Shown: one piece after another, positions 15,474 to 28,740 of the stretch
Layout: the number at the start of each line of letters is the position of its first letter
Position numbering within the stretch: position 1 is the stretch's first letter
Assembly: GCA_050184295.1 (NCBI GenBank)
Contig: JBFXAM010000055.1
Location: 1 to 28,740, forward strand
Direction of reading: 5' to 3'
DNA from: Phycisphaerae bacterium
Lineage (GTDB): Bacteria; Planctomycetota; Phycisphaerae; UBA1845; Fen-1342
Length of the DNA: 28,740 nucleotides
The notes under the pieces: model-generated
What the model saw: only the letters and a program-made list of their open reading frames with translations
The model's database searches: none
Told to the model about the DNA's origin: nothing
Made by a program: the position numbers and the translations under genes

Positions 15474-17912
15474 CTACGGACAGCCGTTGTTGACGACGCA
15501 CGCGACGAACGAATCGATGTCGAAGTTATTGGCCAGACCGTCGCCATTGGTGTCGCAACGGCAGACTCGGCACGCCGGATCGCCGCCGCAGAACGTGTTG
15601 ACGTACGCCGTTTCGTCGGTGAGCGCGAGCACGAACGCATCGATGTCGAAGTTGTTGACCACGCCGTCGCCATTCGCGTCGCCGACGACGTGACCGGCGC
15701 ACGGATCGGCCGAGCCCAGCGCGACGTCCATCCCGTTGAAACTGGAGCTGATGCCCGGGTTCAACGAGAAGTAGTCGGTGCTGCTGTTGTCGGCCAGCGC
15801 CGCGATGTCGGCGGCGTCGACGTCGCCGTCGTTGTCGGTGTCGAGGTCGAGCACGTCGACGTAAACGCGCGGGAGCGGGGCGGTGCTGCCCGCGAACTGG
15901 CCGAGGTACAGGTTGCGGTCGGTGCAGAGCGCCATCTCACGGCTGGTCTGAAGCGACATGCTCAGGTCGATCGAGCGGACAAAGTTCGGTCCCTGAATGT
16001 CGATAACCGACAGCAGCGACTGGCTCGTGCTCGTGCCCGAATCGAAGGCCGATTGGAGCACGAACAGATAGGGTGCGATGGTCGGGTTGTACTCAACCTC
16101 GACAAAGCGCGAGCCGGTGGCCGCGGTCGCGGGGATGTTGATCAGCACGCTGATCACGCCGCTGGGCACGTCGAGCGTCTGGACATCCAGCGTATTGCCG
16201 ACGCCGTAGACCGCCCCGACGACCGTGTCGTCGTCGAGCCACGCGGTGCCCTGCGTGATGCCGGTGTTGCCCCAGAAGTTGAACTCGGCCGCGCCGGTGA
16301 TCGACGCGCCCGTGCCCGTGCCGGGCGTTGCGCCGGCGTTGTAGTCGAGCACATAGAGCGAGCCGGTGTCCTGGCCCCAGACCGCGATGCGCGAGTTATT
16401 CGGGCTGACGCTGAGGCCGCCGGTGCGCGTGCAATCGATGCCGCCGAGCAACGTGTTGAAGCGGTAAATCAGTTCGAGCGTGTCGGAGCCGTCGGTCGAC
16501 AGATTCCAAAGCCCGCCGCCTTCCTGCGGACGGAGCGGATCGACACACGAGGGCGAGCTGCCCGGTGTTCCGCCGGCGGCGCCGAAGTTCAGCGCGAGCA
16601 GGTTGCCGTTCGGACTGTGTGCGAACGGTCCCGTGCGGTTGTCGAACTCGACCGACTGGAGGAAATCCGCACCCGTCCAGGCGCCAACGAACGCGCCGCC
16701 GCGCGCCAGGTGGACGGCGCCCGGTCCGGCCGACGAATAGCCGACCGCAACGTCGCAGCCTTGAACCGCCGGCGCCGGAATCGGGCAGGGATTCGTCGGG
16801 CCGCAAGCGACATTGTCGCCGACGTAGAAGCCGCCGCCCGCAACGCAGTCGGCCCGCGTCTGAGTCGTGCACATGCCCGCGTTGCAACACGCGCCGGTCG
16901 GCTGCGGACAATTCGCCTGGGCACAGGTCACGTTGTCGCCGGCGTAGGTTCCGCCCTGCGCATCGCAGTCGCCCGGCGACTGGCCTTCCATGCACGAGCC
17001 GTTCGGGAAGCAGCACGCGCCAAAGCGGTTCGACGGGCAGTCGCCGAGGTTGCAGATCGTGTTGTCCCCACCGTAGGTGCCGCTCTGCGTCGCGCAGTCG
17101 GCGGCGGTGGTGACCACGCAGAAGCCGTCCGCGAGGCAGCAGCGACCGCTGCAACCCACCTGGTAGTTCGCGTTGCCGGGATCGAGCGTGAGCGCGCTGG
17201 GGTCGCCGATGCCAATGCCAGCCCAGCCAAAATTGCTGGTCGGGCTCCAGTTGTACGGACCCGGGCTCGCGCCCGTGACCTGCCCGCCGGCCCATGAGCC
17301 GCTCGCGATCGGGCGACCGGTGTTGCAGTCGATCAGACGGTAGAGCGCATGCGGCGTGTGCCCGACGAAGCCGAGCGCCGTGCCGCCGAGATCGTCCGCA
17401 TACTCAAACTCGTCCACGCCCGCGGTCTCGGCGAAGCTGACCGCATCGACGACCGTGAAGCCGGCGAGCGGTCCGTCCAGCGCGCCGTCGTTATTGGCGT
17501 CGAGGTCCGTGGCCACCGCCGGGGGCGTACCAAAGCCCAGCACGTATGTGTTGGTGCCGTTCTCAATGTCCGGGCTGAAGTCAAGAACCTGCACGTTCGT
17601 CGCGGGCGCCGGCGCGGGGCTTAGAACCGTCGCCGCATCCCGGCGGAGAAACAAGCCGTTGGTGCCGAGCGACTGTCCGCTGAGATCCAGAACCTGGTCG
17701 ACGACGCCGCCGCCCGTGCCGTCCCCCTCAATCACGAGCACGTAATAACCGGTGAGGCCGAAACCGGCCGGTCCACCAAGCTCGATGTACTCCTGCCCCC
17801 CGTCGGTGCCGGGCGGATTGAAGAAAACCTCGCTCAGGAACGGCTGCGTGCCGGCGAGGGCCGCACCGACGAACAGCGATGTGCAACATAACACCGCAAG
17901 CATCTTTCGCAT
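15474..17912 (-). CDS. Secreted multidomain surface protein (812 aa): signal peptide, lamin-tail domain (LTD), three tandem 6-Cys modules, a beta-rich region, and C-terminal dockerin-like Ca-binding repeats
   Basis: ATG 17912 is preceded by AGGAGG (aggaggaaactgtttATG). The signal peptide is MRKMLAVLCCTSLFVGAALAGTQP. The LTD motif is FLSEVFFNPPGTDGGQEYIELGG. The Cys modules are G(R/A)CC...C...DC...GG(T/F)Y.GDN..C....CP, repeated three times (nt 16779-17147). The C-terminus carries DTDNDGDVDAADIAAL, DANGDGVVNNFDIDAFV and DTNGDGLANNFDIDSFV (dockerin type-I-like). Confidence 0.85.
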   Translation of the reverse strand: MRKMLAVLCCTSLFVGAALAGTQPFLSEVFFNPPGTDGGQEYIELGGPAGFGLTGYYVLVIEGDGTGGGVVDQVLDLSGQSLGTNGLFLRRDAATVLSPAPAPATNVQVLDFSPDIENGTNTYVLGFGTPPAVATDLDANNDGALDGPLAGFTVVDAVSFAETAGVDEFEYADDLGGTALGFVGHTPHALYRLIDCNTGRPIASGSWAGGQVTGASPGPYNWSPTSNFGWAGIGIGDPSALTLDPGNANYQVGCSGRCCLADGFCVVTTAADCATQSGTYGGDNTICNLGDCPSNRFGACCFPNGSCMEGQSPGDCDAQGGTYAGDNVTCAQANCPQPTGACCNAGMCTTQTRADCVAGGGFYVGDNVACGPTNPCPIPAPAVQGCDVAVGYSSAGPGAVHLARGGAFVGAWTGADFLQSVEFDNRTGPFAHSPNGNLLALNFGAAGGTPGSSPSCVDPLRPQEGGGLWNLSTDGSDTLELIYRFNTLLGGIDCTRTGGLSVSPNNSRIAVWGQDTGSLYVLDYNAGATPGTGTGASITGAAEFNFWGNTGITQGTAWLDDDTVVGAVYGVGNTLDVQTLDVPSGVISVLINIPATAATGSRFVEVEYNPTIAPYLFVLQSAFDSGTSTSQSLLSVIDIQGPNFVRSIDLSMSLQTSREMALCTDRNLYLGQFAGSTAPLPRVYVDVLDLDTDNDGDVDAADIAALADNSSTDYFSLNPGISSSFNGMDVALGSADPCAGHVVGDANGDGVVNNFDIDAFVLALTDETAYVNTFCGGDPACRVCRCDTNGDGLANNFDIDSFVACVVNNGCP

Positions 17913-18076: not shown

Positions 18077-18784
18077 TCATGAAGTGAAAGAGGATATCGA
18101 GCTCCTCGCCAACTCGACGCTAATCAGGTATTCATCGACGGGCGCACCGCCGAGCCGCGCCAGCGTCCACGCGTCCGCCGCGCGAAACGGCCCGATGGCC
18201 GTCCGCGCCAGCGCCGTCAGGCATCCCCCCGCTCCCAGCCGCGCTCCCAGATCCCGCGCCACCGCGCGGACGTATGTTCCGCGACCACACGTCATCGTGA
18301 ACGCGACGCGCGGCCACTCGTACGCCGTCAGCGTGATCGACTCAATCCGCACACGCCGCGGCTTCAACTCGACCGTCTTGCCGCGCCGCGCCAGCTTGTA
18401 CGCCGGCTGCCCTCCGATCTTCAGCGCGCTCACCATCGGCGGCGTCTGCTCGGTCTCTCCGACGAACCCTTTCAGCGCTTCTTCCACGTCGCCGCGCGTC
18501 GGAACGCGCTCCACTGGCACCGGAATCAGCGGTCGATCGCTGTCAAAACTCTCGCTGGTCACGTCCAACCGCGCTTCCGCAACGTATGTCTTCGGAAGTC
18601 CCATCAGCAACTCGACGAGCTTTGTCGCCTTGCCCAGACAGAGAAGGAGCACGCCCTCGGCGGCCGGGTCGAGCGTGCCGGCATGCCCGCTCTTGCGCTG
18701 GCCGACGACCTTGCGCACCGCGTAGAGCGCCTTGGCACTCGTAATGCCGGTCGGTTTGTAGAAGTTGATTAATCCGTCGAGCAG
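18077..18784 (-). CDS. truB: tRNA pseudouridine(55) synthase TruB (catalytic domain only, no PUA domain); start codon uncertain (putative CTG at 18784)
   Basis: It has the conserved TruB N-terminal KP motif (LDGLINFYKPTGITSAKAL) and the catalytic Asp motif (SGHAGTLDPAAEGVLLLCLG). An in-frame TGA lies at 18815-18817. No ATG, GTG or TTG occurs between that stop and the KP motif; the track's start (GTG 18718) would cut the conserved N-terminus. Only a CTG (18784) is available upstream of the motif. Confidence 0.75.
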   Translation of the reverse strand: MLDGLINFYKPTGITSAKALYAVRKVVGQRKSGHAGTLDPAAEGVLLLCLGKATKLVELLMGLPKTYVAEARLDVTSESFDSDRPLIPVPVERVPTRGDVEEALKGFVGETEQTPPMVSALKIGGQPAYKLARRGKTVELKPRRVRIESITLTAYEWPRVAFTMTCGRGTYVRAVARDLGARLGAGGCLTALARTAIGPFRAADAWTLARLGGAPVDEYLISVELARSSISSFTS

Positions 18785-18881
18785 CGGTGCACCTCGGTTG
18801 AGCGCGGCGCACGGTCAGAGCTCTAGCCGCGCGGCGCGCTGCAAGTCTACTCCACGGCGCACCTTCGCGGGCGCCGGCCTC

Positions 18882-20987
18882 TCATGCGGAATGTTGTTCG
18901 GTCGCCGCGATCGCCGTAACATCCTCGGGCGTCATCCGGCACGGCGGCGTGAAGTGCCGCACGAGCACACGGCTGCGGCAGGCCGCGGCCCGGCGTGTGG
19001 AACCGGCGAACGACGACGTTTCTCCCGGAATGCAGCGAATCGCGTGAAGACCGCCGACACCCTGTCGCCGTTCGATCTCTATCGCCCCGCGCCGGGGGTG
19101 CCGCGGCGGCGATGGCTCCAGGCGGCGGCGCGCGTCGCGGAGCGCGTGCTCGGTCTGACCGAGTTGACGCGCGTACACCGGCGGATCGGCGCACTGGCCG
19201 AGCCTCCGTCGTTCGCCGAGCGCGCCCTGCGCGTGCTCAACATCCGCTGGCGGTTCGACGAGGGCGCCTGGGCCCACGTCCCGCGGACAGGACCGCTCGT
19301 CGTGATCGCGAATCACCCCTACGGCGGCCTCGACGGGTTACTTTTGATGGCGCTGATGCAGCGCCTTCGCCCGGACGTGCGCACCATCTCCAACTACATG
19401 CTCGCCCGAATCCCCGAAATGCACGAGCTGGCGTTCTTTGTCGACCCCTTCGGCTGGGAGAATTCGCGCCGCCGGAACCGTCCCTCGATGCGCGTCCTGC
19501 TCACCTGGTTGCGAAGCGGCAAAGCGCTGGCGGTCTTTCCCGCCGGCGGCGTTTCCTACTTCACATTCAAGGAGCGCTGCATCACGGATCCGCCGTGGCC
19601 CGACACGATCGCCCGCATCGTGCGGCGGTCCGCCGTGCCGGTCGTGCCCGTGTACTTTGAGGGTCACAACAGCCTAATCTTTCAGGCGGCCGGCTATGTC
19701 CACACACTGCTGCGCACCGTGCTGCTGCCGCGCGAGGTCGTCAACAAGCGCGGTGCGACGATGAGCGTCCGAGTCGGCAGCGTGATCCCGGCGGAGCGCG
19801 TGGTCCGCTTCACCAGCGACGCGGCGCTGAGCGAGTATCTTCGCCTGCGCGTGTACGTGCTGCGTGGGCGCTGTGCGGCCGATCACGAACACGTCGCTTC
19901 GTCCGACTTAGCACCCGACGCGAACGCGCTTCCGTCCGCAAAGCCGGCCGAACCACCGCGGTTGATATCCGCTGCGCAGCAGCCCGTCGCTGCGCCGTCG
20001 GCAGTCGCCGCGCCGCGCGGGATTTCGGCATCCGCGCCCGCTGCGGCGCTCGCCGAGCGCGAGGCCGCCGAGATCGGCGCCTTGCCGGCGGATCAGTGCT
20101 TGCTGACGAGCGGTCCGCTGGTCGTGCTCTGCGCCCGGGCGGCGCAGATTCCGAACAGTTTGCAGACGATCGGGCGCTTGCGCGAAGCAACGTTTCGCCT
20201 CGTCGGCGAAGGCACCGGCCGCGACGTCGACCTCGACCGCTTCGACGAGCACTACTGGCAGTTGTTCCTCTGGAACCGCGACGAGCGGCGCATTGTCGGC
20301 GGCTATCGCCTCGGCGCGAGCGACGAGATTCTGCCGCGCTTCGGCGTGGAGGGCTTCTATACGCGCACGCTCTTTCAGTTTGGGCGCGAGCTGATCGAGC
20401 AGATCGGCCCGACGCTCGAAATGGGCCGCTCGTTCGTCGTTCCGGAGTATCAGCGCAGTTACTCCTCGCTATTGCTGTTGTGGAAGGGCATTGCGCGCTT
20501 CATTGTCGCCCATCCGCGCTATCGCACGTTCTTCGGCGCAGTCAGTATCAGCAACGAATACCAGTCGATGACGAAGCAGTTGTTGATGGCCTTCCTGCAA
20601 GCGAACCGGCTCAAGCACGAGCTCGCTCCGCTGCTGCGCCCTTTGAATCCGCCGCGGCTGGCGCCGCTGCGGCCTGACGAGCGCCGGCTCGTCTCGCGGG
20701 TCGTGCGCGACATCGACGACGTCGACGAGCTCGTCCACGAAATCGAATCGCGGCACAAACACGTGCCGGTACTGCTTCGTCAATACCTGCGCCTCAACGC
20801 GCGGCTGCTGGGATTCAACGTCGATCCCGAGTTCGGCAACGTGCTCGACGGACTCGTGCTGGTCGATCTGCTGCAAATCGATCCGGTCGTGTTCGAGCGC
20901 TACTGCACGCCTGAGGGCGCCGCCCGCTACCGCGCGCATCACGCCGCTACTTCGAATCGCGAGTCGTTGGCCGCGCAACACGACTGA
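18882..20987 (+). CDS. olsF: Bifunctional acyltransferase, OlsF-like: N-terminal PlsC-type acyltransferase (HX4D) fused to a C-terminal OlsB-like GNAT N-acyltransferase. Putative ornithine-lipid synthase
   Basis: ORF 18765(TTG)..20987. The first ATG is 18882; an alternative GTG is at 19044. The N-terminal domain has the glycerolipid-acyltransferase motif VIANHPYGGLDG plus FPAGGVS. The C-terminal domain has the Acetyltransf_5/OlsB-like signature LREATFRLVGEGTGRDVDLDRFDEHYWQLFLWNRDERRIVGGYRLG. The two domains are joined by an Ala/Pro-rich low-complexity linker (roughly nt 19880-20095). The symbol olsF is tentative. Confidence 0.7.
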   Translation, partial: SCGMLFGRRDRRNILGRHPARRREVPHEHTAAAGRGPACGTGERRRFSRNAANRVKTADTLSPFDLYRPAPGVPRRRWLQAAARVAERVLGLTELTRVHRRIGALAEPPSFAERALRVLNIRWRFDEGAWAHVPRTGPLVVIANHPYGGLDGLLLMALMQRLRPDVRTISNYMLARIPEMHELAFFVDPFGWENSRRRNRPSMRVLLTWLRSGKALAVFPAGGVSYFTFKERCITDPPWPDTIARIVRRSAVPVVPVYFEGHNSLIFQAAGYVHTLLRTVLLPREVVNKRGATMSVRVGSVIPAERVVRFTSDAALSEYLRLRVYVLRGRCAADHEHVASSDLAPDANALPSAKPAEPPRLISAAQQPVAAPSAVAAPRGISASAPAAALAEREAAEIGALPADQCLLTSGPLVVLCARAAQIPNSLQTIGRLREATFRLVGEGTGRDVDLDRFDEHYWQLFLWNRDERRIVGGYRLGASDEILPRFGVEGFYTRTLFQFGRELIEQIGPTLEMGRSFVVPEYQRSYSSLLLLWKGIARFIVAHPRYRTFFGAVSISNEYQSMTKQLLMAFLQANRLKHELAPLLRPLNPPRLAPLRPDERRLVSRVVRDIDDVDELVHEIESRHKHVPVLLRQYLRLNARLLGFNVDPEFGNVLDGLVLVDLLQIDPVVFERYCTPEGAARYRAHHAATSNRESLAAQHD

Positions 20988-21880: not shown

Positions 21881-23218
21881 ATGGGCTGGTTGTGGACTGG
21901 GTTGCTGGCCGCCCACATCGGGAGCCTGGCGGCGATTGCGCAGCAGCCCCCGTGTCCGATGCATCCCCGTTTCAAGGCGCCGCTCGTGTTCTGTTCGATC
22001 GGCGGGAACGTCTGCAACACGGAAGACTGCACCATCAGTCGGCCCGGCGGGCTTGCGCTGGCACGGCTCGTCGGCGACGACGCGCTGCCCGACGTCGCGG
22101 TCTGCAACACCGACAACCTGCCGTCGATCAGCGTCTTTCGCAATACCGGGATTTGGACCGTGCCGCAGGGTTCTCAATGTGCCCTTGAGCATGTGTCGGG
22201 GTCGCCGTTCGAGATCGACGGTTTGCCGAACGAAGTCGAAGCGGTCGACATCGACGCCGACAATGACGTTGACCTCGTCGTTGCCGTCACGCGCTTTGGC
22301 CCCGACAGCGGCTGGCTCGCCATTCTCCGCAACACCGGCACCGGCACGTTCTTGCCCGCCGAGTATGTCGCGCTCGAGTCGCGCAATGCCGACGACCTGG
22401 TCGCGGCGGATTTTGACGCGAACGGCCGCGTCGACGTCGTCGTCGCCGGCACGCATGTCGCGGGCGGCCTCAAGTACCCCCAGGCCGAACTCGTGCGCCA
22501 GAGCGCGCCCAATGTCTTCACCAAGACGGTGTTTTCGATGTCCACGGCCGGCTACCAGGGCCGGGGCACAGCGGTGGACAAGGGGCGCCTGCGCCGTCCG
22601 GGGATCGCCGGCCGCCTCGATGTCGTGATGGGCATCGACAACACGACCGCCCCGCCGAGGATGCTCGTGCTGCTGAACGATCCCGACGCCGGCGCGAATA
22701 TATTTCAAAAGCAAGAGACCAACGGCACCACTACGCGCTGGATCGCCGTAGGCGAGATCGTCCTGGATTCGAACAGTGTCATCGCATCGAACACGGACGG
22801 GCAACTCGTCGATGTCTGGCACGCGGACCAGGACGGCGCTTTTCCGCCAGAATTCAGCAGTCGGTATGAGATCGCCTTGACGATCGGTCGTGCACCGTCC
22901 GGTATCGCAATCGGCCCGCTGTCGCCGGACACCGTCCCCGACTTCGTGGTCGCGCTCTTTTCTGACACCGCGTGTTCCAGCCACGGCGCCGCGCTGACGT
23001 TCACAGGCCTGGGAAAGGTCGATGACCCCTACGCATATCGATTCTGCCAACCACCACTGGTGCATTGCGTCGACCCGCTCGGCAGCCCGAAGCCCCAACA
23101 CCTCGAGCTGGCGGACCTGAACCAGGACGGCCTGCTCGACGTAGTCACTTCTCACTCCGAGTCCAACCGATTCAGCGTTCTACTCAATGACTTGCCCATC
23201 ATTCCGGGCGGGAACTAA
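21881..23218 (+). CDS. Secreted FG-GAP/VCBS repeat protein (integrin-alpha-like beta-propeller), 445 aa
   Basis: ORF 21641..23218(+) trimmed to ATG 21881, which begins a signal peptide (MGWLWTGLLAAHIGSLAAIAQQ). FG-GAP-like Ca-binding repeats are present: DIDADNDVDLVVAV, ADFDANGRVDVVVAG and ADLNQDGLLDVVTS. Confidence 0.75.
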   Translation: MGWLWTGLLAAHIGSLAAIAQQPPCPMHPRFKAPLVFCSIGGNVCNTEDCTISRPGGLALARLVGDDALPDVAVCNTDNLPSISVFRNTGIWTVPQGSQCALEHVSGSPFEIDGLPNEVEAVDIDADNDVDLVVAVTRFGPDSGWLAILRNTGTGTFLPAEYVALESRNADDLVAADFDANGRVDVVVAGTHVAGGLKYPQAELVRQSAPNVFTKTVFSMSTAGYQGRGTAVDKGRLRRPGIAGRLDVVMGIDNTTAPPRMLVLLNDPDAGANIFQKQETNGTTTRWIAVGEIVLDSNSVIASNTDGQLVDVWHADQDGAFPPEFSSRYEIALTIGRAPSGIAIGPLSPDTVPDFVVALFSDTACSSHGAALTFTGLGKVDDPYAYRFCQPPLVHCVDPLGSPKPQHLELADLNQDGLLDVVTSHSESNRFSVLLNDLPIIPGGN

Positions 23219-23292: not shown

Positions 23293-24561
23293 ATGTCACC
23301 AACCAGATCTGGCGTACGCGCCGACGTCTTGGCCATGCTGTCGCTGGTCGTGGCGACCGCAACGGCGCAGCCTCGATACCACATCACGCCGCTCCATAAC
23401 GCGGAGATCCTCTTCGGCCCGACCGCCGATCTCAACGAGCGGAACCAGGTCGTGGGCTGGGGTTCATTACGATCTACGCCCAGTACACAAGGCCTTCGTG
23501 CAACGCCGGGCGCGGGCATCGATCTGATCCCGAGTGTCATCCCCGGTTTCGCCGCGGCATCGCCGAAGGCCATCAATGACCTCGGCGAAGTCGCCGGCCA
23601 GGCACAAAACGGATTTGGCAGCGTCGCGTTCTACTGGAGCGAAGCCACCAGCACCGTTCAACTCGAATACCCTCCCGCCGAAAGCCTTAGCAGCAGCGCC
23701 CAGGACATCAACAACCTCGGACAAATCGTCGGCGCTGCCACCTCGACCGACGAACTCGGCACTTTCGCTCAGGCGATGCTCTGGAACCCCCCGTACAGCC
23801 AGCCCTTCGGACTCGGCGACCTGCCCGGCGGCGATCGCTTCAGCCACGCGAACGCCATCAACAACCATGGCGTCGTCGTGGGTCAGAGCACCACGTTCCG
23901 CGGCGGCGAGGCGTTTGTCTGGTCAAAGGACGACGGCATGCAGGCTCTGCCCGATGCGCCCGACGGCCTCTGGGCCGCCAGCGCTCACGATATCAATGAC
24001 CTCGGGCAGATCGTCGGCCAGACCACCGGCGGACTCCCGTTTTTCTACGACCCGGAGGAAGGTTTTCACATCCTGCCGCCGATCAAGGACATCACCGACT
24101 ATGGCCTGTACGCGATCAACAGCCGCGGACAGGCCGTCGGCGAAGGCTGGTACCTCTCGCGTTTTCAGCCCCCACCGAGCCACGCCGTCATCTGGGACTG
24201 GGAATTCGGCGCCCGCGACCTGAATGACTTCCTCTCCCCCGTCACGCCGCTGCCGCCTGGCAGCCACGGCAACTACCTCGCGATCGCCTGGAGCATCAAT
24301 GATCAAGGCCGCATCGCCGCCGTCGACCGCGGCGCCAACGGCTACCTGCTCACACCCTATTCCCCGTGCGATGTGAACTGCGACGGCGTGGTGGATGTGT
24401 TCGACATCGACGCGTTCGTCGAAGTGCTCTCCGCGCCGGCTTCCGTCATCGACTCGCAATGGCGGTGCCCGAGCACGTCCGCCGCCGACGCGAACATGGA
24501 TGGTGTCGTGGACAATCGCGACATCGATCCGTTCCTGCGCGCCGTGCTGCGCGGCGGATAG
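23293..24561 (+). CDS. Secreted HAF-family repeat protein with a C-terminal tandem dockerin-like module, 422 aa
   Basis: The signal peptide is MSPTRSGVRADVLAMLSLVVATATAQP. Six HAF-type repeats are present: INDLGEVAGQA, INNLGQIVGAA, INNHGVVVGQSTTFRGGEAFVW, INDLGQIVGQT, INSRGQAVGEG and INDQGRIAAVD. The C-terminus has CDVNCDGVVDVFDIDAFVEVL ... DANMDGVVDNRDIDPFLRAVL (nt 24367-24558). There is no PEP-CTERM sorting signal, which HAF proteins usually carry. Confidence 0.8.
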   Translation: MSPTRSGVRADVLAMLSLVVATATAQPRYHITPLHNAEILFGPTADLNERNQVVGWGSLRSTPSTQGLRATPGAGIDLIPSVIPGFAAASPKAINDLGEVAGQAQNGFGSVAFYWSEATSTVQLEYPPAESLSSSAQDINNLGQIVGAATSTDELGTFAQAMLWNPPYSQPFGLGDLPGGDRFSHANAINNHGVVVGQSTTFRGGEAFVWSKDDGMQALPDAPDGLWAASAHDINDLGQIVGQTTGGLPFFYDPEEGFHILPPIKDITDYGLYAINSRGQAVGEGWYLSRFQPPPSHAVIWDWEFGARDLNDFLSPVTPLPPGSHGNYLAIAWSINDQGRIAAVDRGANGYLLTPYSPCDVNCDGVVDVFDIDAFVEVLSAPASVIDSQWRCPSTSAADANMDGVVDNRDIDPFLRAVLRGG

Positions 24562-24742: not shown

Positions 24743-25543
24743 TCAATTCCCCCAGAACGTCCGGCGTCGCCGAAGCGACATCGCGAACGCCCCGATCAGC
24801 AACACCGCGCCGGCCGGCTCCGGCACGACGAACGCGTCGGGTAGCTGATTCCCCGGGACCGGCCCCGGAAAGCAATCGTCGTCCGCGCCAAACCGCAGGC
24901 AGTCGCTCGGCGAGCCGTCCTGGCGCGAGATCCCCGCGGCGCCGACTTGGAACCGCACATCGCTCACGCCCCCGTTCGCCGCGAAATCGAGGTACCCCAA
25001 TAGCACCCACGCCGAGCCATCGTCGAAGCCATCCCGCGCGGCCGGCAGTTGGAGCCCGCGACGTGTCACTGCGACCAGGTTGAATGTCGGCGACGTCAGG
25101 TCCGAGCCCGTCTCCCAGCGCCGAAATTCCGTCGGCGAGGTCACATTCAACATCCCCCCACCCACGATCGTCGCGGCGCCGTTGATTACCACATTCACCG
25201 CGATGCCGTTCCAGACGTTCGGCGTCGTGTCGCCGGGCGTGCCGCCGCCCCAAACCCACAGCCGCCCACCCGGAATCGTCGGATTCGTCACCGGCGGCGT
25301 GTTCAATCCGCTTCCCGGAACCGCGGCCACGTCCCCCGGCAACGCCGGCGCGGTCCGCCCCGTGCCTGCGAACGGATCTTCGGCGGAGAACACGAGGTGA
25401 AGTTCGGCTGCCTGTGCGGCGCCCGCGACCGCAAGCGCGCCGACCGCCGCGAAGAGACGCCGCAGCCGCGGTGCGGTCCGTTGCGCGCGCGGCGGCGCAT
25501 TGGAACGAGGGTCGCCCAACCCGTAGTAAGTGAGTGTGCGCAT
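24743..25543 (-). CDS. PEP-CTERM sorting-domain protein (exosortase substrate), 266 aa
   Basis: ORF 24743..25591(-) trimmed to ATG 25543 (GGGAGAG lies 8 nt upstream). The signal peptide is MRTLTYYGLGDPRSNAPPRAQRTAPRLRRLFAAVGALAVAGAAQA. The C-terminus is VPEPAGAVLLIGAFAMSLRRRR, which is the canonical PEP motif followed by a TM helix and an Arg cluster. Confidence 0.8.
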   Translation of the reverse strand: MRTLTYYGLGDPRSNAPPRAQRTAPRLRRLFAAVGALAVAGAAQAAELHLVFSAEDPFAGTGRTAPALPGDVAAVPGSGLNTPPVTNPTIPGGRLWVWGGGTPGDTTPNVWNGIAVNVVINGAATIVGGGMLNVTSPTEFRRWETGSDLTSPTFNLVAVTRRGLQLPAARDGFDDGSAWVLLGYLDFAANGGVSDVRFQVGAAGISRQDGSPSDCLRFGADDDCFPGPVPGNQLPDAFVVPEPAGAVLLIGAFAMSLRRRRTFWGN

Positions 25544-25750
25544 GGCGAGCACTCTCCCTGATTTGAACCAACGAACCTGGGACCAGTGCAATAGGCATGG
25601 TCGTCTGGCGCGCGCAGCAAGTCAATCGAATTCCGCCGCGCAGGCCCGCGATTCGCCGGCCGGCGGCTCGGTCGCACTCCGGGGTGTCCCGGCGCTCCGT
25701 TCCGAAGGCACAATCCACCGCAACCGATGGCCGAGGCGGCGTGCGGCGAC

Positions 25751-25787
25751 GCAACGCCCCGGCGCCCGGCGGCGCGCGGGGCGTTGC
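25751..25787 (-). terminator. Very stable GC-rich stem-loop (11-bp perfect arms gcaacgccccg / cggggcgttgc with a structured 15-nt loop) between the beta-lactamase-family gene and the PEP-CTERM gene; no U-tract
   Basis: The inverted repeat at 25751-25761 and 25777-25787 was read directly. The loop GCGCCCGGCGGCGCG can add 5 more bp. It lies 56 nt downstream of the stop of the 25843..27246 gene, on the minus strand. Confidence 0.35.
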
Positions 25788-25842
25788 CCGAGTTCAACGG
25801 CCGCCCGCTCCGCGACGGCGCCGTTCAGCGCCCGCGGCGGCG

Positions 25843-27246
25843 CTATCCGCCGATCACGACCGACCCGAGCGGCGCTTTGAGCAGCAACTTCGTCGACAGC
25901 GTGCCCGTCCAGCTCGACGTGCCGGGGTGGAAGTTGACGCGCGAGCCGTCCGCGAGGAACCACAGTGCGTTGTCCACGTCGCCGAACGGGATGTCGTAGC
26001 TGCCATATTGCGTCCACGACCACACGACTTCCGGGTCAACCCAGAATCCGCCCACGTCGGTCGTCGGCCAGTCGCCGGCGGCCATCCCGTCGAAAATCGC
26101 CTTCAGCGTGCCGTTGTAGAAATCGATCGCGCCGGCGCCGGTGTTCTGCTCGTTGAAGAACACAAACGCATTCACGCCGTCGCTGCGCTGAACCGTGTAG
26201 CTGGTGCAACCGGACATGTTGCCGCTCTTGCCGCCGTTCGGGCGATAGCCCGTGGGCTTCGGCTCGCCGAACGGCAACTCGTACCGCTCGGCGAGCTCGA
26301 GCATGGTGGCGGCGCTGGCAATGATGCCGCCCGACCCGAAGTACGTCGCCATGTCCCAGCCGCCGTAGCAACTCGGAACCTCGTGATCCGGATCACAGGC
26401 GTCGAAGCCGTCGCGGGCGTACACGCAGGGTGTGGTGCTGTGATGCTCATACCACGGCTCGCGCACCTGCTTGTCTTCGAAGAACGACTCGCCGAGCAGC
26501 AGATCGGTCGCCGGCACCCACATGTCGGGCGTCAATACGCGGCTGCGGTGGTAGGTGACGATATCCCGCCCGCTCACCACCTCGACCACGCGTCCCAGCA
26601 CCATGTAGCTCGAGTTCGAATACGCATAGCCCGCGTTCGGCGTAAATTGCAGCGGCCGACCGATCAGCCACGCGATCGACTCGTCCACCGCGGGCGGACT
26701 GTCCACGCCCATCTCCGCGGAGATCTCGCAGTTCAGAAAGACGGCGTCCTCGACCGTGTAGTCCCAACCGGCCCGATGTTGGATGCACATTTCGACCGTA
26801 ATATCGCCGTGCCGCGAATCGTAATTCGCCGGCGTCGTCAAAAACGGCTCGACGTCGATGATGCCCGCGCCATCGCCACGAAAGCTGCTGAACACATAGT
26901 CGCTGGGCGAAAGCAACCCGTCGGCCTCCAGCGTACGCGCCGCCGCCGCCGTAATGGCCTTGGTTCCGCTGGCCAACCGCACCACCGCGTTGTCCTGCAT
27001 CTCCAGCGTCTGCGCTTCGTTCATCCAGCCGAAGCCGCGCTGATACACGATCACGCCATTGCGCATGATGCCAACCAGTCCGCACTGAATGTCGTGGTCC
27101 GCCATGAACTCCTGTACCGCGTCATCCACGTCGCGCAGCGCCGGCACGTCGTGCCCGGTCACCGGCAGGTCCGCACCGGCGGGCGAAGCGAACCGCACCG
27201 CCAGCAGCGCGACGAGACCTCGAAACAACCGATGTTCGATTCGCAT
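25843..27246 (-). CDS. Secreted serine hydrolase of the beta-lactamase / penicillin-binding-protein family (class C-like) with a C-terminal extension of ~100 aa, 467 aa
   Basis: ORF 25843..27300(-) trimmed to ATG 27246 (GGGGAGG lies 7 nt upstream). The signal peptide is MRIEHRLFRGLVALLAVRFASPAGA. The S-x-x-K active-site motif is ASGTKAITAAA, and a YSNSSY motif is present. The C-terminal extension runs DWPTTDVGGFWVDPEVVWSWTQYG... Confidence 0.8.
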   Translation of the reverse strand: MRIEHRLFRGLVALLAVRFASPAGADLPVTGHDVPALRDVDDAVQEFMADHDIQCGLVGIMRNGVIVYQRGFGWMNEAQTLEMQDNAVVRLASGTKAITAAAARTLEADGLLSPSDYVFSSFRGDGAGIIDVEPFLTTPANYDSRHGDITVEMCIQHRAGWDYTVEDAVFLNCEISAEMGVDSPPAVDESIAWLIGRPLQFTPNAGYAYSNSSYMVLGRVVEVVSGRDIVTYHRSRVLTPDMWVPATDLLLGESFFEDKQVREPWYEHHSTTPCVYARDGFDACDPDHEVPSCYGGWDMATYFGSGGIIASAATMLELAERYELPFGEPKPTGYRPNGGKSGNMSGCTSYTVQRSDGVNAFVFFNEQNTGAGAIDFYNGTLKAIFDGMAAGDWPTTDVGGFWVDPEVVWSWTQYGSYDIPFGDVDNALWFLADGSRVNFHPGTSSWTGTLSTKLLLKAPLGSVVIGG

Positions 27247-27312
27247 GGTGAGGCCTCCCCAGCGCGGCGTCCGGGTCGCCCGGACGCCGCGCGGTTGCAA
27301 TGATGAGAACGT

Positions 27313-28362
27313 CTACTGAAGGTTGACCAGGACGAGCACTAACCCGCGCTCTCCGTGCGTCAGGCCGGTCATGGCCTTTCCGATCACGGCGCCGTGCGAA
27401 CGGTCGCGGTCCGCCGCCTTCATCGCGTGCCCCGGCGTGTCCGAAGTGGTCAGCAGATCGCCGGGCTCAATCGCCCGGTCGCCCGCGTCGCAATGAACCC
27501 AAACACGCCCGGACAGAGCGATCGGCGGCGCGTCTTCGGAACCCGCCATATTTCCCAGAATCGCGCCGGCTTTCAGATCGCCCGCCCCGCTCACGACTCC
27601 GGCCACACGCCGGTTGTAGGCGCCACGTGCGATGCGCAGCTTGCCGGCGTGATCCGGGTCGATCTCGGCGACCATGCCCGGTTCCGGCGCGTCGCTGAAG
27701 GGAAATTTTTCCGCCAGGTCCGCTCCCGTGATCTCAACTTCCTTCGCCGTGATGCGACCGGTCACATTGACGCGCCCCTGAAACCAGCCGGCATACGCGC
27801 TGGCACTGCTGCCGCTCTCGGCGTAGACCGCGTAGTTCGTGCCGCTCGACGCCAGACACTTGGCAAACACGGCGCGCCCGCTCGTGCTCGCATTCTGGAA
27901 GTAGCCGCCGCTGGTCGTGCCCGTTTGCGCTGAGGCGATTCCAAGGACACCGATGCCCGACGTGCTCGTGCTCGTGCCGCTCACGCCCTTCGTCGATCCG
28001 GTCGCGCCGCTCGCGAAGCCGAACACGCCCGTTCCCGAACTGCTCATGCTCTGGAAGTACCCGCCAAACGTGTTGCCTGTCGCACCGCTCGCGCGCCCCA
28101 TCACACCCGCACTCGCCCCCGCTGCGGCCGTACTCGCGGTCTCGAACCAACCGCCGTAGCATGCCTGTCCGGTCGAGCTCGCGAGGCCCTCGATCGCCCG
28201 TCCGTTCGCACTCGTATTGGTCACGCGAAACGCCGCGCCCACCGCGGCGACGGTCCCGCTGTCCGGCAGCACGATCACGGCCTTCGCGCCGCTGGAGCCG
28301 TGATGCAAGAAAGCTGCGGATGCGACGACGGTCGCCGCGAGATGTCTGAAACCACGTTTCAT
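27313..28362 (-). CDS. Secreted Gly/Ser/Thr-rich repeat protein with a conserved C-terminal beta-rich domain of ~140 aa, 349 aa
   Basis: ORF 27313..28737(-) trimmed to ATG 28362 (GGGAGG with a 7-nt spacer). The signal peptide is MKRGFRHLAATVVASAAFLHHGSSGA. The repeats have the form GG(Y/W)F(Q/E)xxSxxGxG, four times, in ASGATG/ASAQTG contexts. The C-terminal domain reads VAGVVSGAGDLKAGAILG...ALSGRVWVHCDAGDRAIEPGDLLTTSDTPGHAMKA...GERGLVLVLVNLQ. I recognise no family. Confidence 0.7.
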   Translation of the reverse strand: MKRGFRHLAATVVASAAFLHHGSSGAKAVIVLPDSGTVAAVGAAFRVTNTSANGRAIEGLASSTGQACYGGWFETASTAAAGASAGVMGRASGATGNTFGGYFQSMSSSGTGVFGFASGATGSTKGVSGTSTSTSGIGVLGIASAQTGTTSGGYFQNASTSGRAVFAKCLASSGTNYAVYAESGSSASAYAGWFQGRVNVTGRITAKEVEITGADLAEKFPFSDAPEPGMVAEIDPDHAGKLRIARGAYNRRVAGVVSGAGDLKAGAILGNMAGSEDAPPIALSGRVWVHCDAGDRAIEPGDLLTTSDTPGHAMKAADRDRSHGAVIGKAMTGLTHGERGLVLVLVNLQ

Positions 28363-28484
28363 CGCCAATCCTCCCGGTAGTGCGCCGCGAACCCGGCGAG
28401 CCCACAACGAGCCACGCCTGCCGAGAATTGGCGCGCGGGACCAGGGTCTTTCAGCAATGAAGGGAAAATAGTAGGACCGACTGC

Positions 28485-28519
28485 GCAACCGCGTGTGCCG
28501 GCACAACCGCGCGTGCCGG
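28485..28519. repeat. Tandem 18-bp direct repeat (gCAACCGCGtGTGCCGG / aCAACCGCGcGTGCCGG) containing the perfect palindrome GTGCCGGCAC, 125-160 nt upstream of the start of the 27313..28362 gene
   Basis: Read directly from the sequence: 28485-28501 and 28503-28519. The palindrome spans 28494-28503. It sits in a promoter-proximal position for the minus-strand gene starting at 28362. Confidence 0.5.
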
Positions 28520-28725
28520 TGCAGCCGGCGGCGGCGCGCCGACAGGCGCGTACGGGCTGCGACCACGCCGCAGCGCTGCTCCTCCACCGATCGTTCCGCG
28601 GCCGGCCGCCTACACGCCGCGCTCCGCGTGCGCCCGCGCGCCGGCCTCCGGCACCGCTTCGCCGAAGGTCGCGCGTTTGGCTGCGGATTCAGGCGGAGTC
28701 GGCGGCGCGGCGCGCAAATTGCACG

Positions 28726-28735
28726 CCCCCCCCCC
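28726..28735. repeat. C10 homopolymer tract (G10 on the minus strand)
   Basis: gcacgCCCCCCCCCCaacct near the right window edge, about 370 nt upstream of the minus-strand gene starting at 28362. This is the longest homopolymer in the window. Confidence 0.6.
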
Positions 28736-28740
28736 AACCT

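Follow-up and report, generated by a model that had tools for sequence, protein, structure and literature searches.

Two secreted proteins encoded on one contig of a Phycisphaerae metagenome-assembled genome (MAG) end in the same kind of short module, which raises the question of what this module is and to what it might attach its carriers. The window, that is, the whole stretch of DNA analyzed here, is the entire contig (28,740 bp, 68% GC, locus tags AB7Q17_). One carrier is a HAF-repeat protein of 422 amino acids (aa), and the other is an 812-aa protein with Cys-rich repeats. Judged by sequence comparison and structure prediction, both tails are genuine dockerin-type modules of one distinct and large subfamily, so far found only in Planctomycetota, and we consider it likely that the module is a tag that docks secreted cargo to a protein receptor at the cell surface.

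The two tails and their relation to dockerins

The carriers and their modules are as follows.

23293-24561, plus strand: HAF-repeat secreted protein, 422 aa (AB7Q17_11095), in which a signal peptide and HAF/DUF3466 repeats precede the dockerin-like module at the C terminus
24367-24558, plus strand: dockerin-like module of the HAF protein (last 64 aa), recognized with Dockerin_1, the family profile hidden Markov model (HMM), AlphaFold2 (AF2) and Foldseek
15474-17912, minus strand: secreted protein of 812 aa, which begins with a signal peptide and an N-terminal domain, continues with three Cys-rich repeats and a beta-rich region, and ends in a dockerin-like module
15477-15695, minus strand: dockerin-like module of the 812-aa protein (last ~73 aa), recognized with the family HMM
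15795-15842, minus strand: single extra EF-hand-like loop (DTDNDGDVDAADIAAL) in the 812-aa protein, 38 residues upstream of its module, found by regular expression

The 422-aa protein is identical to P0001, a Phycisphaerae MAG protein, and scores 54.8 bits over four stretches on the HAF repeat model TIGR02913 (NCBIfam cutoff, 22.65) and 37.3 bits on Pfam DUF3466. Its final 64 aa (CDVNCDGVVDVFDIDAFV...DANMDGVVDNRDIDPFLRAVLRGG) hold two 12-residue putative Ca-binding loops, DVNCDGVVDVFD (from 24370) and DANMDGVVDNRD (from 24487), with a helix after each and with a Cys pair that corresponds to C9/C38 of the 68-aa tail. In the 812-aa protein, the tail (GDANGDGVVNNFDIDAFV...CDTNGDGLANNFDIDSFVACVVNNGCP) has the loops DANGDGVVNNFD and DTNGDGLANNFD and a Cys-rich linker, and it closes on the C....GCP motif of a family subset, the ending ...GGCP being common to P0122, P0124, P0142, P0144, and others. 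A six-frame search of the window for D-x-N-x-D-G...D-I-D-x-F returned only these four loops (24370-24417, 24487-24534, 15633-15680, and 15507-15554) and the looser loop at 15795-15842, which is not significant on the family HMM (0.9 bits). All four are canonical, with D1, N3, D5, G6, and D12 in 12 residues and then a DIDxF segment. The tandem build that the initial annotation had described for both tails, and their positions, are therefore correct, 24367-24558 being the last 64 aa of the HAF open reading frame (ORF).

The proposed similarity of the two tails is also significant. In a whole-module alignment, 27 of 68 positions are identical (40%; BLASTP E=6e-11), and the Smith-Waterman score of 104 compares with 28.3 +/- 5.3 (maximum, 55) in 5000 composition-preserving shuffles (z=14), while the remainders of the two proteins are unrelated (alignment score, 39). 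When the family HMM was built from 115 other members, with both window tails left out, it gave the 812-aa tail 78.6 bits (E=5.5e-24) and the HAF tail 66.3 bits (E=3.9e-20), so both are ordinary members of the family; no further module was found with it among the six-frame ORFs of the window (next best, E=2.8). A chance resemblance of two Asp/Asn/Gly-rich tails, which the composition bias of both and the failure of the 812-aa tail on Pfam Dockerin_1 might suggest, is refuted by these three measures and keeps a negligible probability. Recent duplication or gene conversion between the tails is ruled out as well, because identity at the DNA level is limited to about half of the aligned columns, without any long stretch of identical bases.

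Several lines of evidence place the module among the dockerins, as its calcium-binding signature had suggested to the initial annotation. The HAF tail alone scores 25.1 bits on Dockerin_1 (PF00404; gathering score, 22.9) and 22.1 bits within the full protein, and the same model matches 20 of 73 family carriers at E<=1e-4. In the AF2 model of the HAF tail (predicted local distance difference test [pLDDT], 86.6), a loop-helix, a short linker helix, and a second loop-helix follow one another, with helices 15-26 and 54-65 directly after the loops; these are the two tandem loop-helix segments by which Dockerin_1 is defined. In a Foldseek search of the PDB with this model, the best 22 matches were all cellulosomal dockerins, among them 8x39, 4fl4, 6kgf, 4dh2, 2vn6, and 1ohz (query-normalized TM-score [TMq], ~0.5 to 0.71; probability up to 1.0), so the predicted fold is that of solved dockerins. 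The best PDB sequence matches of the family profile are likewise type I dockerins (4fl4_A, E=1.5e-5).

With the type I dockerins (e.g., C. thermocellum Xyn10B, 1OHZ_B, and Cel9, 4FL4), the module shares two tandem F-hand units in which a 12-residue loop with D1/N3/D5/G6/D12 is followed by a helix, a size of 60 to 70 aa, a C-terminal position on many different enzymes, and strongly symmetrical halves. It differs from them in a longer linker with a short helix, and in a pair of conserved Cys, one at loop-1 position 4 and one in the linker "YPxC," to which a second pair is sometimes added at the end (C....GCP). The Ser-Thr recognition pair of the C. thermocellum type I class at loop positions 10-11 is absent; these positions read V-F and N-R in the HAF tail, N-F in both loops of the 812-aa tail, and x-Phe in the family consensus. 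The host also differs, being a diderm, non-cellulolytic planctomycete whose cargo is mostly peptidases, propellers, and repeat proteins. A second relative is NF041540, the "GC-type dockerin domain-anchored protein," likewise a dockerin variant from outside cellulosomes that serves as an anchor at the C terminus. Among NCBIfam models it comes closest to the HAF tail and to 22 of 117 family members, all below its cutoff (best member, E=1.4e-4), and it does not match the 812-aa tail; the present family is a distinct subfamily. A literature search found no paper that mentions "GC-type dockerin." The module is, in short, of a known kind: the original observation was correct, but the domain is common and annotatable, and most of the interpretation attached to it was reasonable while not specific to this locus.

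As to the rest of the 812-aa protein, residues ~255-375 (~16790-17150, minus strand) form three tandem Cys-rich repeats of ~40 aa with the pattern CC..G.C.......C...GG.Y.GDN..C.....CP and without a Pfam match. The lamin-tail-domain (LTD) label that the protein had first been given could not be reproduced, since residues 21-230 showed no match to PF00932 in Pfam at E<=10 and no relevant PDB sequence match.

A widespread tag that alternates with PEP-CTERM

A profile built from seven tails retrieved 574 proteins. Those with a named source are without exception Phycisphaerae or Planctomycetes proteins. Two further carriers belong to this MAG, which has at least four in all (P0197, P0235, the HAF protein, and the 812-aa protein). 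The consensus is GDLNCDGxVNxFDIDPFVLALTDPAxYAAAYPxCDxxxADxNGDGxVNxFDIDPFVxLLTGG, in which the Cys at loop-1 position 4 is nearly invariant and the linker Cys is invariant; one subset, including the 812-aa protein, has the C....GCP ending. An exhaustive search of 1.84 billion cluster representatives gave 14,856 proteins at E<=1e-3, of which 7,464 pass E<=1e-10. By tblastn we confirmed at least 419 copies in GTDB genomes; Planctomycetota MAGs account for all of the best 80, and a single genome contributes up to 18 or more.

Across 1.07 Mb of sampled loci, 123 of 133 copies (92%) end within 15 aa of the stop codon, and the carriers bring together M12B, M14, C25, M28, and M10 peptidases, FG-GAP, PD40 and other propellers, GEVED, TSP3, fn3, DUF7901, and HAF repeats. 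The predominance of peptidases and beta-propellers agrees with the initial description of the host as not obviously cellulolytic. Module genes occur in clusters of up to 8 within 20 kb. A few proteins have the module at the N terminus, internally, or in 5 to 10 tandem copies: P0266 (1541 aa; 310 bits on Dockerin_1), P0243 (646 aa), and P0248 (431 aa) consist largely of tandem modules, with 10, 9, and 5 stretches, an architecture rare in cellulosomes. Very small secreted proteins, in which a ~55-aa domain ending in "GGFWxG" precedes the module, are widespread (e.g., P0131, P0166, P0190, P0194, and P0201).

HAF proteins are commonly expected to end in PEP-CTERM, a short transmembrane sorting signal that is processed by exosortase. 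We sorted the 120 best HAF homologues by their C-terminal ends.

PEP-CTERM-like: 31
hydrophobic helix plus basic residues: 14
strong module match: 7 (P0001 itself and its closest relatives P0002, P0003, P0004, P0006, P0010, and P0036)
other dockerin-like units: about 5
dockerin-like unit followed by PEP-CTERM: 1 (P0045)

The expectation holds for 45 of the 120 (~38%), which end in a PEP-CTERM-like sequence or in a transmembrane helix with basic residues. The module thus stands in the same C-terminal anchor position of the same HAF cargo as the signal of the PEP-CTERM/exosortase pathway (TIGR02913 plus TIGR02595), and PEP-CTERM proteins occur in this organism too. Unlike that signal, however, the module is a folded, predicted Ca2+-binding domain without a membrane segment. 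On an evolutionary scale, the swapping of C-terminal anchors that the initial annotation had envisaged is therefore real, as HAF relatives end in PEP-CTERM, in the module, or in both. A local, recent swap is not supported, because the six closest relatives of the HAF protein already have the module, and the combination of HAF repeats and module is an established lineage. Nor is the PEP-CTERM of the neighboring gene part of such a swap, as had been thought: that gene belongs to an unrelated family with a PEP-CTERM of its own, which is irrelevant to the history of the HAF gene.

A probable docking tag and its candidate receptor

The gene whose PEP-CTERM had served for contrast deserves attention for another reason.

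24743-25543, minus strand: 266-aa protein (AB7Q17_11100), convergent with the HAF gene, in which a signal peptide is followed by a predicted beta-sandwich of ~190 aa and a putative PEP-CTERM anchor (VPEP, transmembrane segment and RRRR, about 24761-24826)

Its stop codon and that of the HAF gene are 181 bp apart, and the intergenic region holds nothing informative as a terminator or promoter. The C-terminal motif (VVPEPAGAVLLIGAFAMSLRRRR) scores 14.5 bits on TIGR02595 (cutoff, 16), and Pfam PEP-CTERM (PF07589) matches 8 of 17 family members (best E=3e-5). The ~190-aa domain is beta-rich and has no Pfam match. The family comprises 9 database proteins, four of them paralogues in this MAG, and its genes usually stand in tandem arrays of 2 to 4; a narrow metagenome scan gave only 2 loci. 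From only nine aligned sequences, AF2 predicted a beta-sandwich (pLDDT, 70.3; predicted TM-score, 0.66), a medium-confidence model in which the fold appears cohesin-like. The segment RRWETGSD (residues 141-148) is invariant in the nine family members and falls within the only low-confidence loop of the model (residues 131-160); it may be a functional site.

Members of this family lie near module genes in several genomes, as listed here.

window: member convergent with the HAF-dockerin gene
L067 and L100 (orthologous loci): four-gene PEP-CTERM array convergent, in two genomes, with a small "GGFWxG"-plus-module gene (L067 230-784, plus strand; L100 11068-11505, minus strand)
L104 (35% identity): member one gene away from a 1047-aa alpha/beta-hydrolase with an N-terminal module
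L041 4528-5487, plus strand (CAZYGM010000061.1): neighbor-type domain fused to the module in place of PEP-CTERM

The L041 protein has a signal peptide, the neighbor-type beta-sandwich domain (E=3.4e-18), and a C-terminal module (100 bits) and lacks a PEP-CTERM, so that the interchange of PEP-CTERM and module extends to the neighbor's own domain. It is either an adaptor-scaffoldin-like fusion or a second PEP-CTERM/dockerin exchange. At the one other informative locus, that of P0369, there is no module within 13 kb, and the remaining contigs with family members are too short to judge adjacency. Some of the adjacency could be due to chance, because module genes cluster.

On the docking reading, the module would be a tag that can pass from protein to protein and that sits, nearly always at the C terminus, on Sec-exported proteins whose cargo domains are many and unrelated. 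Once exported, it would most likely fold around two Ca2+, one per loop, and the Cys pair would probably form a disulfide in the oxidizing periplasm or exterior that staples loop 1 to the linker. A partner would meet a binding face made of the two symmetric helices, each with FDIDPFV, and the cargo would most likely be docked non-covalently to a protein receptor at the cell surface, as an alternative to the covalent or membrane PEP-CTERM/exosortase route of other HAF-repeat proteins. The hypothesized partner is a cohesin-fold protein that is itself held at the surface by PEP-CTERM/exosortase. What supports this reading in the data is the homology, fold class, abundance, position, and cargo diversity of the module and its interchange with PEP-CTERM. 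That the loops bind Ca2+, that the Cys pair is bridged, and that the module docks would follow by analogy with what is established for dockerins, and which protein is the receptor is a further, hypothetical step.

A number of observations weigh against this reading. On the side of the module, the 812-aa tail alone reaches only 12.0 bits on Dockerin_1, far under the threshold of 22.9; the Foldseek E-values of the 68-aa HAF-tail model are weak (0.06 to 1), as expected for a domain of that size; no NCBIfam model reaches its cutoff, NF041540 giving the HAF tail 22.2 bits against 29; and the 5 to 10 tandem copies of some proteins are unusual for a docking tag. On the side of the receptor, the cohesin-like assignment comes from one model of pLDDT 70 and a 9-sequence alignment, for which Foldseek ranked generic sandwiches first and not cohesins. 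No sequence tie to cohesins (PF00963) appeared in Pfam at E<=10 on 17 members or in profile-versus-PDB searches, and hhalign against three CipA cohesins gave a probability of 0.1. The neighbor family looks far rarer than the module family in searches keyed on shared words or exact motifs, and at L020, an orthologous FG-GAP/HAF locus, no family member follows the HAF gene. Finally, and in contrast to type I dockerins, no cohesin partner is detectable by sequence (Pfam) in the window genes, in 10 carriers of unusual architecture (N-terminal, internal, or multiple modules), or in the sampled neighborhoods of module genes.

The lack of a sequence-detectable cohesin in everything sampled and the tandem arrays are also what speaks for the strongest alternative, in which the module is an orphan, dockerin-derived Ca2+-binding element that has no protein receptor and either stabilizes its cargo or binds, in a Ca2+-dependent manner, a non-protein surface component such as a polysaccharide, peptidoglycan, or a holdfast-like matrix. 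Arrays such as the 10 Dockerin_1 stretches of P0266 and the 9 of P0243 resemble Ca2+-binding structural arrays, and module genes are scattered among housekeeping genes and not in scaffoldin operons. An orphan element, however, does not sit easily with the extreme C-terminal position of 92% of the copies on unrelated cargo, nor with the genomic association of module genes with a candidate of predicted cohesin fold. Moreover, the FDIDPFV helix residues, and not only the Ca2+ ligands, are strongly conserved in both halves across thousands of sequences, which argues for a common interaction surface. We therefore regard the orphan reading as unlikely. Less probable still, and by a wide step, is a sorting signal that is read and removed by dedicated machinery, like PEP-CTERM by exosortase or the C-terminal domain of the type IX secretion system. 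The extreme C terminus, the dozens of copies per genome, and the interchange with PEP-CTERM on the same cargo would fit such a signal, but a folded dockerin-type domain of 65 to 70 aa with canonical Ca2+ loops, which also occurs N-terminally, internally, and in tandem, would not. Since P0045 carries a dockerin-like unit and then a PEP-CTERM, the two are not simply equivalent signals.

Docking to a surface protein therefore remains the reading that we prefer, and within it the convergent PEP-CTERM neighbor is the best receptor candidate at hand, although, with its fold known from prediction, only a tentative one. Because the neighbor is predicted to be cohesin-like, the receptor that the initial annotation had sought elsewhere in the genome may be the very gene it used only as a contrast. 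Stated for the whole family, the proposal that AB7Q17_11100-type PEP-CTERM proteins are exosortase-anchored, cohesin-fold receptors for Cys-stapled dockerin modules is rather doubtful. As a rival to this receptor lead and not to docking itself, the neighbor could be just one more cargo protein of the surface, built on a generic beta-sandwich; its place beside module genes would then result from the clustering of surface-protein genes, and the L041 protein would be a cargo plus anchor. We find this fairly probable: it is consistent with the Foldseek ranking, the medium confidence of the model, the lack of cohesin sequence similarity, the small size of the family beside a huge module family, the clustering that raises chance adjacency, and the P0369 locus.

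Were the neighbor a cohesin, it would be an unusual one. Compared with known cohesins (PF00963), including the non-cellulosomal ones of A. fulgidus (2XDH) and C. perfringens (2VO8/2W1N), it has no detectable sequence similarity; it is anchored by PEP-CTERM and not by S-layer homology domains or sortase; its genes form arrays of single-domain paralogues and not multi-cohesin scaffoldins; and its invariant RRWETGSD lies in a loop that the model cannot place.

Genomic setting and biological meaning

The HAF and 812-aa protein genes have no dedicated operon and are surrounded by housekeeping genes (ThiD2/ThiE, a peptidyl-prolyl isomerase, a Band-7 protein, UvrC, TruB, an OlsF-like lipid synthase, and a beta-lactamase-family protein). 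One gene of special interest lies just upstream of the HAF gene.

21881-23218, plus strand: FG-GAP beta-propeller protein (Pfam FG-GAP_3, 57.3 bits)

This protein had been suggested as a possible third member of the tagged set, but the family HMM finds no module on it, and it lacks one at all three loci where the order of FG-GAP and then HAF-dockerin gene is kept. These belong to three distinct Phycisphaerae genomes: the window, L080 (883-3468; 50% and 36% identity for the pair, FG-GAP E=3e-134), and L020 (2978-5772), whose FG-GAP protein is more distant. Because the gene order is conserved in two further, more distant genomes, the FG-GAP and HAF genes are probably functionally linked as a two-gene unit.

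Three other genes of the contig may be noted. At 18765-20987 (plus strand) lies a two-domain acyltransferase that resembles OlsF, a bifunctional ornithine-lipid synthase, with an NCBIfam score of 364.6 bits (equivalog cutoff, 620). The long ORF at 25597-27303 (plus strand) is probably spurious, because a Beta-lactamase family domain (109.6 bits) lies in the opposite ORF at 25843-27300 (minus strand), which is also the one called as a gene in the related contig L096. The secreted protein encoded at 27313-28737 (minus strand), up to the contig end, has Gly/Ser/Thr-rich repeats (...GxxGGYFQ...) and a conserved-looking C-terminal domain without a Pfam match, and it has the appearance of a fiber or adhesin protein.

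The general idea of a non-cellulolytic cohesin/dockerin assembly in these bacteria is not new, since Andrei et al. (2019, ISME J, PMC6461901) put forward a "planctosome" for the Nemodlikiaceae, which are freshwater Phycisphaerae. In that model, dockerins are borne by M12B reprolysin and M14 peptidases, an LTD protein is the membrane tether, and Pfam-detectable cohesins lie on large scaffold proteins (PMC6461901). The bacterial class is the same here, and M12B and M14 peptidases are again among the cargo. In contrast, the 812-aa protein, to which the irreproducible LTD label had been given, itself carries a dockerin module, and the sole receptor candidate is small, PEP-CTERM-anchored, and cohesin-like by predicted fold only; both models are hypotheses. 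In the literature searched, no paper combines cohesin, dockerin, and PEP-CTERM, and a PEP-CTERM-anchored receptor of predicted cohesin-like fold may be new.

Dockerin-like modules are abundant in Planctomycetota and in other non-cellulolytic microbes. Our analysis defines among them one coherent subfamily of ~15,000 cluster representatives with a diagnostic Cys pair, which alternates with PEP-CTERM on the same cargo, and it adds a possible binding pair that can be cloned, namely the tail of the HAF protein and the ectodomain of the PEP-CTERM protein encoded beside it, so that the question of the receptor can be put to a direct test. If the receptor idea were refuted, the module would stay an ordinary and already annotatable dockerin-type tag. 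If it were true, the outer surface of this group of planctomycetes would carry dozens of secreted proteins, HAF-repeat proteins, the 812-aa Cys-repeat protein, peptidases, and hydrolases among them, on a cohesin-dockerin scaffold held by the PEP-CTERM pathway, and the L041 protein, with its cohesin-like domain and module, would be an adaptor that extends the assembly. Its confirmation would link exosortase/PEP-CTERM and cohesin-dockerin display, which have so far been treated separately, and would explain how diderm planctomycetes organize their extracellular peptidases and adhesin-like proteins.

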